44,309 nucleotides of DNA from a virus (Duplodnaviria > Heunggongvirae > Uroviricota > Caudoviricetes): IMG/VR virus record IMGVR_UViG_2684622542_000005; one strand, given 5' to 3'. Position 1 is the first letter of the stretch. Every line of letters starts with the position of its first letter. The translations under genes and the position numbers were made by a program. Positions 34,679 through 38,119 of the stretch are shown one piece after another. Below the pieces are notes generated by a model, which was given only the letters and a program-made list of their open reading frames with translations, had not been told where the DNA came from and did not search any database.

Positions 34679-34763
34679 CGCTTTTTTGAATTTCCGCAAA
34701 ACACATATTTTTCAGCGGTCGCTATTCTGACTCTGTTTAATTCAGAAACAGGCAGAAAAGACG

Positions 34764-36829
34764 ATGTCAGACTCCAAGTGGAAAATGCTCTCCGCCATGC
34801 CCGGAGAGTTTTCAGTCAAGGTTGCCGGTGGCACGGTGGCATTTATTGAAAGCCCTTTCCGCCCTTCGGGTAATAAAGGGGGGATCACCTTCGCAGACTG
34901 CGTGATCCGCTTCAGCACGAAAGAGCCATTATGGGTAATGCCGGTATCCGGTAATCCCAGTGCAGAAATCACCAGTTCAGGCGTGACTGGCATCATTCCA
35001 ATCACATCTGACGTGGCCGGAACGCTCACGCCCTCCGACTGGAATGCACCGGATAACGCCGGGCCTTCCGGTAGCACGAATGGCAGCAGTTCAGAGCCGG
35101 AATATTACTTTGTTGTCATTCTCGCGGGTCAGTCAAATGGCATGGCCTACGGCGAGGGGCTGCCGTTACCGGATTCGTTTGACCGCCCGGACCCACGCAT
35201 TAAGCAACTGGCACGCCGCAGTACGGTAACGCCCAACGGTACGTCGTGTACATACAACGACATCATTCCGGCAGACCACTGCCTGCATGATGTTCAGGAT
35301 ATGAGCGGGATAAACCACCCGAAAGCTGATCTGGCAAAAGGCCAGTACGGGACTGTCNNNNNNNNNNNNNNNNNNNNNNNNNNNNNNNNNNNNNNNNNNN
35401 NNNNNNNNNNNNNNNNNNNNNNNNNNNNNNNNNNNNNNNNNNNNNNNNNNNNNNNNNNNNNNNNNNNNNNNNNNNNNNNNNNNNNNNNNNNNNNNNNNNN
35501 NNNNNNNNNNNNNNNNNNNNNNNNNNNNNNNNNNNNNNNNNNNNNNNNNNNNNNNNNNNNNNNNNNNNNNNNNNNNNNNNNNNNNNNNNNNNNNNNNNNN
35601 NNNNNNNNNNNNNNNNNNNNNNNNNGGGAGAGGCAGACCTTGCCTCAGGAAGCCAGCAGCATAATAGTTTATTCACGGCCATGGTTCAGCAGTTCAGAAC
35701 TGACCTGGCTCCGCTTGCTGCGCAGTGCGTGAGTGGAAATGCCACCACGGTGCCGTGGATTTGCGGTGATACCACGTATTACTGGAAAAACGCTGGCACC
35801 GATAAATATGAGGCAGTATACGGTGGCTACAAAGGCAAGGAAGCACAGAAAATTTTCTTTGTACCGTTCCTGACGGATGAGAATGGACAGAGCACGCCAA
35901 CGAATGCTCCGGCGGAAGACCCGGATATTGTGGCTGTCGGGTATTACGGTGCAGCATCCCGAACCCAGGGCAGTTTTGTTTCGACACAGCGTGACAGCCA
36001 TTTCAGCTCATGGGCACGCAGGGGCGTCATTTCAGACCGTCTGGCCTCAGCTATTATGCTCCATGCAGGGCGCACGGCTGAACTGATGCGTGGGCAGACC
36101 GTGACACCACCGGATGAGAAGCCGTCACCTGATACACCATCAAAACCGTCCACGCCACCCGCAGACACCACGACGATGAGTACGCTATTTGCTTACCGGG
36201 CATCTGAGTCTGAAGGACGGTTGACACCACAGGGTTGGGCTGCCGGAGGTGGCAAGGCTCAAATCGTGGATGATGCCGGAGCCAGCGGGGGTAAGGCAAT
36301 GAAACTGACCAAGGAAACAGGAAGAGCCCCCTGGTACCTTGAGCATGATGCTGGTAATGGTGCGGACCTGCTGGGTAAAGGTGGTCTTGTCAGTTGTCGT
36401 TTTAAACTCGATGGCGCGCTTACGGCTAATCAGTACGCACTGGCGCTGTACTGGCCGGTTTCTGCCCTGCCGCAAGGGGTTACTCTGGAAGGAAATGCCG
36501 GTCATAACCTGCTGGCATCGTTCTACGTACAGAGCGATGCCACAGACCTTAACGTGATGTATCACAAAGGAAACACGGCGCAGAACACGAAGCTGGGGTC
36601 ATTCGGCGCATTTAATAACGAATGGCATACGCTGGGCTTCCGTTTTGCCGGTAACAACAGTATTGAGGTGACGCCGGTCATTGATGGTAAGGACGGGACA
36701 CCATTCATGCTGTCGCAGTCTCCGGTCGGCACGTTTACGGCAGACAAGTTGCGCGTGACCGATATCACTAAAAATGCGACTTACCCGGTACTGATTGACA
36801 GTATCGTGGTGGAAGTGAATAACGCGTAA
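34764..36829 (+). CDS. Putative multidomain carbohydrate O-acetylesterase-like protein, interrupted by N-run
   Basis: N-terminal domain, then ILAGQSNGMAYGEG (GQSN block), then after the N-run GEAD and DSHF motifs, a Pro/Thr-rich linker and a ~200-aa C-terminal domain. Frames on either side of the N-run differ, so this may be two ORFs (34764-35732 and 35681-36829). Confidence 0.5.
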
Positions 36830-36844
36830 GCAGGATAAAAAAAT

Positions 36845-36877
36845 GCCGCCGGTAAGGGAAAACAAGAAACCGGCGGC
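36845..36877 (-). terminator. Putative intrinsic terminator (minus-strand or bidirectional)
   Basis: Stem GCCGCCGGT / ACCGGCGGC with 15-nt loop; T-run on the minus strand, A-runs on both sides. Confidence 0.35.
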
Positions 36878-36973
36878 AAAAAGATCGTTATATCCAAAGC
36901 AAAAAATGCAGTGCACCTTTTTACCTAACAGATATTACCGGTGTCAACACCATGTCAATAATTGGGAGGGATA

Positions 36974-37156
36974 ATGACATTTTTACAGCTTATTTTATTG
37001 TATTTCTGCACGGCAGTATGTGCGTTATATCTGGTGAGTGGTGGTTATAAGGCCATCAGAAATTATGTTCGCCGCAAAATTGAGGACGCAGCAGCTGAAA
37101 AACTCAGTAAAACAGCGCAGGTAACTCCGCTCCCAAAAGACCCGACCCAGCCCTGA
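36974..37156 (+). CDS. Hypothetical small membrane protein
   Basis: GGGAGGG before ATG 36974; N-terminal hydrophobic helix. Confidence 0.5.
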   Translation: MTFLQLILLYFCTAVCALYLVSGGYKAIRNYVRRKIEDAAAEKLSKTAQVTPLPKDPTQP

Positions 37157-37191
37157 TTGCAGGGCTTTATTCCCGCATAAGGAGGATATAC

Positions 37192-37446
37192 ATGCCAGAA
37201 ATTAAAGGCACCGTCACTGAAGACCTGGTAAAACAGGCACTGTATTCCGGTGAAGTAAATAAGTTGCTGAAAGCGCAGGTCCGCAAGGATTTTGAGGCAC
37301 AAATCGACACTTACGTTGATGAAGTGCTGGCAAAACTTATTGGGCCAGCAGTTGCGGCCAGTGATGCTGATAATGAGCCGAAAACCGACGCGCAGCCAGA
37401 GCAACCAGACCCGGCTCAGCCCGGAACTGACAGTACCATGATGTAA
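37192..37446 (+). CDS. Hypothetical acidic protein
   Basis: AAGGAGG 7 nt before the ATG; followed by stem-loop 37453-37478. Confidence 0.55.
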   Translation: MPEIKGTVTEDLVKQALYSGEVNKLLKAQVRKDFEAQIDTYVDEVLAKLIGPAVAASDADNEPKTDAQPEQPDPAQPGTDSTMM

Positions 37447-37613
37447 CAATACAAACCGGTGGTGTCCTCTGCCGGTTTGACACTAATGAAAACATCTTTG
37501 CCGCTATCCAGCCATATGTAATCGCTGGATAGTATTTCGTATTCAGAAATATAGCTGCTTATGGAGCAGTCAATCCTGCTTCCCCATCCGGGCAGGCAAA
37601 TGAACCGGTATCA

Positions 37614-37907
37614 TTAGTCCGATTCACGCTTTTGTAGAATCGTTCCCAGAATGCTATACAGCTCATTAGCCTGTTGCTCCATCATTGAGACGGAGGCTAT
37701 ACGGTGCAAAGTGATTTCAGGAGGTGGCACACCTCCATCTTCTTGCTGTGGAGGAAAAACATAAGATTTAATAAAAAAGTTGAAGCATATGAACTCTCCC
37801 GCACTCGAACTGTATTTGCAGGCATCTGAATAATCGGAAAAATAATCATTATAGATTTCCGCATTTTCAATCATTTTTCGATTTCTCGTCGTTACATGAT
37901 TGTCCAT
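37614..37907 (-). CDS. Hypothetical protein (AT-rich, opposite strand)
   Basis: 97-aa ORF in an AT-rich block convergent with the preceding plus-strand ORFs. Confidence 0.45.
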   Translation of the reverse strand: MDNHVTTRNRKMIENAEIYNDYFSDYSDACKYSSSAGEFICFNFFIKSYVFPPQQEDGGVPPPEITLHRIASVSMMEQQANELYSILGTILQKRESD

Positions 37908-38097
37908 AGCAGCCTCTTACGCTGGCAATTAACCAATTGACTTCTATAAATTAGTTGATTTGTTTGCTTTGCGGTATTCAAATGTACAATCATTCAGCAC
38001 TTATGCGTTACAGCACCGTTTAAAATTAGTGATCAAACTCATAAATTTTCGCTAATGACATTTCGTGTTATTTGTTGTATCAATTAAATAAATCAAA

Positions 38098-38119
38098 TCG
38101 ATCGTTTTTGTCGATCGAT
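38098..38119. promoter_or_regulatory. Two GATC-containing TCGATCG heptamers upstream of com/mom
   Basis: TCGATCG at 38098-38104 and 38111-38117, 45-65 bp upstream of the com start in an AT-rich region. Confidence 0.4.

Follow-up and report, generated by a model that had tools for sequence, protein, structure and literature searches.

The 44,309-nucleotide stretch of viral DNA analyzed here (IMG/VR record IMGVR_UViG_2684622542_000005, hereafter the window) contains a 38.7-kb Mu-like prophage at approximately positions 504-39189. The prophage carries a c/ner-type immunity region, MuA/MuB transposition genes, gam, a Mor/C-family activator gene, lys, head and contractile-tail genes, an invertible tail-fibre segment, gin, com and mom, and its right end (~39189) was placed where homology to a copy at another insertion site stops. 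The subject of this study is the DNA between gin and com. The prophage shares gin, com, mom and the Dam-site cluster, in the same order, with the right end of Mu and its relatives in the genus Muvirus (G segment-gin-com-mom-attR); however, gin (ending at 34678) and com (starting at 38164) lie approximately 3.49 kb apart in the window, compared to 94 bp from gin stop to com start in Mu, 82 bp in D108, 82 bp in SfMu and 58 bp in the Yersinia phage vB_YpM_3. Therefore, the 3.4-3.5 kb of extra DNA reported by an original prediction, which was made from the letters of the window alone, is real and absent from the genus Muvirus. That prediction had read the interval as a moron island of inserted non-Mu cargo. 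The comparisons presented below indicate instead that an accessory module, conserved across a clade of transposable Mu-like prophages in Escherichia coli and Shigella and built around a gene for a NanS-p-type esterase, occupies the interval. The genes of the interval and its borders are:

34106-34678, plus strand: gin, serine DNA invertase, at the left edge of the interval (Pfam Resolvase, 1.6e-51, and HTH_7; 70% identical to Mu gin at the DNA level)
34764-36829, plus strand: nanS-p-type sialate 9-O-acetylesterase gene, 684 amino acids (Pfam and PDB matches; a masked run, 35358-35625, lies inside the gene)
36974-37156, plus strand: DUF1378 small protein (Pfam DUF1378, 1.2e-31; phrog_494; hydrophobic N-terminal segment by inspection)
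37192-37446, plus strand: DUF826 small acidic protein (Pfam DUF826, 6.4e-16; phrog_311)
37614-37907, minus strand: orphan open reading frame (ORF) of 97 amino acids (86 in RefSeq, with the start at 37874), guanine-plus-cytosine (GC) content 0.40
38164-38364, plus strand: com (Pfam Zn_ribbon_Com)
38318-39055, plus strand: mom (Pfam Mom; 78% amino acid identity to Mu Mom)

The four ORFs of the interval were correctly located by the original prediction, and RefSeq annotates the same four genes in E. coli prophages that are 99.9-100% identical to the window over its unmasked bases. The window itself contains four runs of N (1323-1578, 11395-11654, 24327-24598 and 35358-35625). At least one of these alters the length of the DNA, with the 268 N at 35358-35625 standing for 257 real bases, and reading frames across the masks are therefore unreliable. 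This mask creates an apparent frameshift in nanS-p; a pseudogene reading was rejected because the gene is intact in identical genomes, and when recovered from a 100%-identical E. coli genome nanS-p is one uninterrupted ORF of 684 codons. A dip in GC content at 35-36 kb in the sliding profile is likewise an artefact of the N-mask.

Profile searches bear out the earlier description of the large gene as esterase-like, although RefSeq names the window protein only as "DUF6645 domain-containing". The gene encodes three domains:

34764 to ~35048, plus strand: N-terminal clade-specific beta domain, followed by a linker rich in S, T and P
~35097 to 36064, plus strand: SASA/SGNH catalytic domain, followed by a P/T-rich linker
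36179-36826, plus strand: C-terminal DUF6645 lectin-like domain

Residues 117-312 match Pfam SASA (PF03629, E = 1.5e-13) and residues 533-650 match DUF6645 (PF20350, E = 7e-68). In addition, residues 110-428 match PDB 3pt5, the E. coli 9-O-acetyl-N-acetylneuraminic acid esterase NanS/YjhS (E = 1.8e-117), which is the chromosomal relative of NanS-p, and residues 469-683 match PDB 6yp6, the C-terminal lectin-like jelly-roll domain of NanS-p (E = 7e-98). The catalytic motifs are kept in the alignment to 3pt5, namely AGQSNGMAYGEG with the GQSN serine (Ser124) and the SHFS histidine. No signal peptide was seen in the product by inspection.

The same SASA and DUF6645 domains make up the NanS-p proteins of lambdoid and Stx phages (933W L0105, phi24B gp84), and the window protein is approximately 65% identical to 933W L0105 over residues 94-683. 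The lambdoid proteins also lack a signal peptide, are also encoded next to DUF1378 and DUF826 genes, and also exist as alleles that are mosaic domain by domain. The N terminus is different, with the DUF1737 domain of the lambdoid proteins replaced here by an unrelated beta domain of approximately 95 amino acids. DUF1737 (PF08410) was not found in the window NanS-p, while the positive control, 933W L0105, matched at 4e-18, and profile-profile comparison of the N-terminal domain with DUF1737 gave an hhalign probability of 0.07%, indicating that the two are unrelated. From a 5-sequence alignment, AlphaFold predicted a compact beta domain of approximately 80 residues followed by a flexible linker, with a predicted local distance difference test score (pLDDT) of 73.5 (32 when the domain was modeled from a single sequence). 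Structural neighbours of the model were generic cupin or jelly-roll folds only, none of them informative.

The distribution of the module was examined in IMG/VR viral-contig loci, in sampled complete E. coli genomes, and in a Mu-like phage located inside a Stx2c phage (comparison loci are numbered with the prefix L below). Scanning IMG/VR with the N-terminal domain yielded 34 loci, and in every locus with enough sequence the order was (gin)-nanS-p-DUF1378-DUF826, a variable region of 460-930 bp, com, and then either mom or a C5 methyltransferase gene. The trio of nanS-p, DUF1378 and DUF826 is still kept in some lineages where gin is reduced to a remnant. Among 5426 complete E. coli genomes, 233 (~4%) contain this type of com, counted at a coverage of at least 80%; the window-type N-terminal domain is found in 28 genomes and the type of the O157 prophage in 205, for a sum of 233. 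A further 144 records have weaker com matches (60-80% identity), and the one that was inspected (L007 5488-6421, NZ_CP070045.1) is a P2-like prophage in which com is followed by a DNA methyltransferase gene, near ogr and a hok/gef gene.

Outside E. coli and Shigella, the N-terminal domain was found only in Salmonella and a few other contigs. An exhaustive search of representative proteins gave three matches, one of which is a 30%-identical partial Salmonella protein, while a word-indexed protein search returned fragments only and two scans of genome contigs for the domain found nothing. An esterase encoded downstream of gin in a Salmonella Mu-like prophage has an N-terminal domain with 30% identity. 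In other enteric myophage contigs, SASA+DUF6645 proteins are encoded directly after tail-fibre assembly genes; in two of these contigs, the gene after the esterase is a DUF1353 gene (L048 10467-10859, L050 10204-10578) instead of DUF1378 and DUF826, and the esterase has an extra C-terminal extension of approximately 100 amino acids. The clade appears to be that of the O157 Sakai prophage Sp18, and the O157-type prophage is most likely of the Sp18 kind, both identifications being based on the literature rather than on sequence comparison. Sp18 has been described as an intact, transposing Mu-like prophage of 38.76 kb with variable insertion sites (PMC2669165, PMC7430833).

The conservation of the trio and the composition of nanS-p both argue against a recent arrival of foreign genes. 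All informative clade members contain the trio at the gin-mom junction, while the junction is empty in the four Muvirus phages. With a GC content of 0.549 and a GC content at third codon positions (GC3) of 0.574, nanS-p is core-like and not distinct from the whole prophage (GC 0.537; early genes, GC 0.52 and GC3 0.54; late core, GC 0.57 and GC3 0.62); its N-terminal domain has a GC content of 0.559 and a GC3 of 0.62. The DUF1378 gene (GC 0.45) is marginally distinct from the prophage. Within this clade, the same genes are therefore largely found at the same position with a core-like composition, and the part of the original prediction that treated the trio as a foreign insertion is not upheld.

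Compared to the O157 phage, most core proteins of the window prophage are 92-99% identical (98% for the major capsid protein), as are Com and Mom (95-97%), while NanS-p (66%), the tail-fibre assembly protein U' (61%) and the immunity genes are among the most divergent. The divergence of NanS-p differs by domain. Among Mu-like alleles, the N-terminal domains share 56-100% identity, whereas their identity to the lambdoid ones is only 9-28%. In contrast, the SASA domain of the O157 Mu-like allele is more similar to that of 933W (80-82% identity) than to that of the window (69-70%), the C-terminal domain of a Mu-like allele (locus L039) has its nearest counterpart in a lambdoid Stx1 phage, and Mu-like and lambdoid alleles interleave phylogenetically in both the catalytic and lectin domains. 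From these domain-by-domain identities, it follows that the enzyme body is exchanged with lambdoid prophage alleles by recombination, while the N-terminal domain stays with the phage type. At locus L010 (754-6045) and also at L014, a Mu-like gin and nanS-p are joined, at the 3' end of nanS-p, to a lambdoid DUF826-like gene, holin, endolysin and Rz. The sequence of this junction indicates recombination between Mu-like and lambdoid prophages through nanS-p, possibly accompanied by chromosomal rearrangement.

Two elements precede the nanS-p start:

34683-34700, plus strand: late-promoter-like box TTTTTGAATTTCCGCAAA, forming an imperfect dyad 64 nt before the ATG of nanS-p
34733-34751, plus strand: palindrome CTGTTTAATTCAGAAACAG, conserved and located shortly before the start of nanS-p

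Both lys and the head protease gene I are preceded by an 18-bp imperfect dyad, TTTCTGANNTNCCGCAAA (at 10500-10517 and 18689-18706, respectively); in Mu, the C-dependent promoters Plys and PI occupy these positions. When a pattern was built from the upstream regions of lys and protease I alone, its only match in the window with one mismatch was the nanS-p box at 34683-34700; at up to two mismatches, 0.14 matches would be expected. Each of the three boxes is followed 22-23 nt downstream by a -10-like hexamer (TACGCT, TATGCT or TATTCT), which at nanS-p is TATTCT at 34723-34728, 22 nt from the box. The nanS-p gene of the O157 Mu-like prophage has the same box, the same spacing and a -10 hexamer (TATGAT), while the spacer has diverged. 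If TATTCT is the -10 hexamer, the nanS-p box would span approximately -52 to -35. The late promoters of Mu contain a C-protein dyad centred at -43.5, require the region from -52 to -34, and have no -35 hexamer (PMC2582627); a related TCCCGCACCT core is present in Mu Plys and PI. Because the box is shared with lys and protease I, has the same -10 geometry, is conserved in the O157 prophage and lies at the position of the Mu C site, we infer that nanS-p is a late gene. The candidate box at the C-activator position suggests expression late in the lytic cycle and not in the lysogen, and the Mu-like nanS-p thus seems to be wired into a Mu-type late regulon.

The palindrome at 34733-34751 is kept in both nanS-p lineages while its flanks diverge. 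Its predicted fold is unexceptional (z score -1.1), and an assignment as a LexA box was ruled out by its spacing, which is wrong on inspection. Possible roles are those of an operator or of a hairpin acting in translation.

Taken together, the gene identities, positional conservation, domain mosaicism and shared upstream box make it probable that the interval represents a clade-conserved, late-expressed NanS-p-type esterase module acting on host sialoglycans, with an enzyme body shared with lambdoid phages by recombination and a separate slot for morons. The C-dependence, the timing of expression, the substrate and the biological role are proposed on this basis. The nanS-p gene would be transcribed late in lytic growth from a promoter dependent on the C-type activator of the phage, probably along with DUF1378 and DUF826, so that the enzyme would appear at lysis and virion assembly. 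By analogy with lambdoid NanS-p, it would then remove 9-O-acetyl groups from the sialic acids of host mucins, an activity that has been demonstrated biochemically for the lambdoid homologues.

Several observations weigh against this interpretation. At nanS-p, the C-rich stretch seen behind the box at lys and at protease I is missing. In addition, no comparable box was found in the window upstream of com/mom or the tail operon, and the motif therefore does not cover all late promoters of the phage. The hairpin at the gin stop has a T-run and resembles a terminator, but it is weak and could be leaky, so read-through from gin in lysogens is possible. After nanS-p, the plus strand has no T-run following the hairpin at 36844-36878, a point that bears on the putative co-transcription of nanS-p, DUF1378 and DUF826. 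Finally, the match between the N-terminal domain counts (205+28 = 233) and the com-type count is one of totals rather than of individual genomes.

There are several potential alternative explanations for the presence of the esterase gene at this position. One possibility, which we consider less likely, is that the clade-specific N-terminal beta domain docks the esterase on the head or tail of the Mu-like virion, which would make the protein a structural accessory rather than the product of a conversion gene. There is a precedent in phi24B gp84, a NanS-p protein that decorates the capsid via its N-terminal DUF1737 domain by binding hexons (bioRxiv 10.64898/2026.04.10.717836). The strict division of N-terminal domains by phage type despite exchange of the enzyme body, the apparent late promoter, the predicted compact domain with its flexible linker, and the location of nanS-p immediately behind the tail-fibre module, which recurs in relatives that lack gin and in the other enteric myophage contigs, are consistent with such a role. 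However, the domain does not co-vary with the capsid, since the major capsid proteins of the two lineages are 98% identical while their N-terminal domains are 59% identical; moreover, it is confined to E. coli, Shigella, Salmonella and a few other contigs, and its model has no informative structural neighbour. Extending the analogy to phi24B, the N-terminal anchor may be specific to Mu-like particles, with the same esterase-lectin payload being mounted on unrelated virions by anchor swap, a proposal that we regard as possible but doubtful. If true, a payload would be shared by the capsid of a lambdoid podovirus and a contractile-tailed transposable phage, and nanS-p genes as a class would encode structural accessories that are made late and serve life in mucus, instead of being lysogenic-conversion genes.

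The original idea of a moron island, understood as recently acquired and compositionally foreign DNA expressed from the prophage for the benefit of the lysogen, is unlikely. Although the region is missing from the genus Muvirus, the orphan ORF at 37614-37907 has moron features, and lambdoid nanS-p has been proposed to aid the growth of lysogens on O-acetylated sialic acid (PMC10462455), the trio is fixed in the clade, and the 59-76% identity between lineages implies either long residence or repeated replacement in situ. The core-like GC content of nanS-p and its late-type upstream box also speak against this model, and lambdoid nanS-p expression is reported to increase on phage induction (PMC10462455). 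A role in host range, in which the enzyme would strip O-acetyl groups from sialic acid-containing polymers on the bacterial surface (capsules, O antigens) and thereby expose a receptor, as tailspike esterases do, is similarly unlikely. The interval is accessory DNA at the tail-fibre (host-range) end of the phage, as originally noted; nanS-p adjoins the invertible tail-fibre segment, is among the most divergent genes between lineages alongside U', and has SASA+DUF6645 counterparts right behind the tail-fibre assembly genes of other enteric myophage contigs. However, the catalytic and lectin domains are common to lambdoid prophages of podovirus and siphovirus type that use other receptors. Characterized NanS-p homologues act on free and mucin-bound 5-N-acetyl-9-O-acetylneuraminic acid (Neu5,9Ac2), and most of the strains that carry the prophage are not known to have sialylated surfaces.

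The esterase module favoured here is accompanied by hairpins, a variable slot and the control region of mom:

36844-36878, no strand assigned: perfect 10-bp GC-rich hairpin after nanS-p (-19.7 kcal/mol, z score -4.2; T-run on the minus strand only)
37452-37533, no strand assigned: two hairpins, 37452-37479 and 37503-37533 (-32 kcal/mol, z score -4.65), in the zone of convergent termination between DUF826 and the minus-strand ORF
37476-38054, no strand assigned: replaceable AT-rich cassette slot with three alternative contents in related prophages
38096-38120, no strand assigned: Dam-site palindrome AATCGATCG-N7-CGATCGATT in the control region of mom, at the right edge of the cargo

Stem-loops had been predicted to flank the inserted genes. 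The hairpins after nanS-p and DUF826 are indeed strong, while that at the gin stop is weak (z score -0.7). The palindrome at 38096-38120 is a conserved Dam-site element of the mom control region rather than a signal that delimits the cargo, and it aligns with the GATC cluster upstream of Mu com/mom. From 38055 onward, the two lineages are 92% conserved, and the mom control region is also conserved with Mu. In some members of the clade, a C5 DNA cytosine methyltransferase gene replaces mom, with com and the attR end retained (L004 9420-10472, NZ_CP027366.1, NZ_CM129862.1 and L048 11974-12837), as if one anti-restriction payload controlled by Com had been exchanged for another.

The moron idea does hold for the variable slot. 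Homology to the Mu-like prophage of locus L004 breaks at 37475 and picks up again at 38055, and the cassettes found in this slot are of three types (GC 0.38-0.42), with type uncoupled from the nanS-p lineage and from the neighbouring genes. The orphan ORF at 37614-37907 is AT-rich, as had been recognized, and has promoter-like and terminator-like sites on the minus strand (the latter at 37569-37555). It has no match in Pfam, PHROG, NCBIfam or PADLOC, and its homologues, at 79-100% identity, occur in E. coli and Shigella only. Being AT-rich, oppositely oriented, equipped with its own promoter-like and terminator-like sites, and replaced in sibling phages, it resembles morons in the sense of Hendrix and Juhala, whereas the nanS-p trio has a core-like composition, is fixed throughout the clade and appears to be integrated into the late regulon. 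The orphan ORF is thus the sole gene of the interval that behaves as a classical moron. PADLOC models of defence systems gave nothing convincing for any gene of the interval.

Like nanS-p, its two partner genes have counterparts in lambdoid phages. The window DUF1378 shares 51-52% identity with the lambdoid copies located behind nanS-p, and DUF826 shares 41% with its lambdoid copies; homology at the DNA level ends at the 3' end of nanS-p, and the two small genes are alike at the protein level only. In the lambdoid comparators, the nanS-p-DUF1378-DUF826 trio is flanked by stxAB (or Q) on one side and by the holin gene S on the other, an arrangement between stx and the lysis genes that has already been noted (PMC10462455). 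These comparators (L043 2421-2680, L046 909-1183 and L044 2469-2683) also encode the small RNA (sRNA) STnc100 together with AsxR or AgvB just upstream of nanS-p, and no counterpart of STnc100, AsxR or AgvB was found upstream of the Mu-like nanS-p. A minus-strand match to the sRNA Esr41 (RF02676) at 36844-36878 was rejected, scoring 22 bits against a gathering score of 102 (31 bits at the corresponding lambdoid position); Esr41 itself is located on the SpLE1 island.

Several other features of the prophage were observed outside the interval. The invertible tail-fibre segment is bounded by inverted repeats of approximately 140 bp with 87% identity (32693-32836 and 33905-34044) and contains a truncated alternative fibre C-terminus and a single tail-fibre assembly gene (33094-33615, minus strand); the plus orientation is therefore without an assembly gene of its own. 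The right end of the prophage adjoins a fragment of an ISEc8/IS66-family transposase gene (39274-39732), followed by a fragment that resembles the Tn3 family on inspection (39755-40231). In other strains, the same phage is inserted in the gene of an SgrR-family regulator, in ureC and at other sites, consistent with active transposition. Between a gp30-like gene and gene G, the RefSeq annotation has a minus-strand "tRNA-OTHER" (window ~17997-18076, L002 20674-20753), while ARAGORN found no tRNA in the entire window, including at this site.

NanS-p esterases have been studied as genes of lambdoid and Stx phages that help enterohaemorrhagic E. coli (EHEC) use the O-acetylated sialic acids of mucin, and no publication linking NanS-p to Mu-like phages was found. 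In contrast to the lambdoid genes, the gene described here belongs to a transposable Mu-like myophage and is located between gin and com/mom rather than between stx/Q and holin, with the lysis genes approximately 24 kb away, and the element upstream of it is more like the late promoters of the phage itself than like a pR'-Q antitermination system. These findings indicate that approximately 4% of complete E. coli genomes, including those of O157 strains, contain a further, overlooked nanS-p allele on a transposable Mu-like prophage, and that nanS-p serves as a recombination bridge between unrelated prophages within one genome. Together with its exchanged enzyme body, its phage-type-specific front domain and its apparent tie to the late regulon, this allele provides a clean natural experiment on the long-standing question of whether NanS-p enzymes are conversion factors of the lysogen or equipment of the virion.

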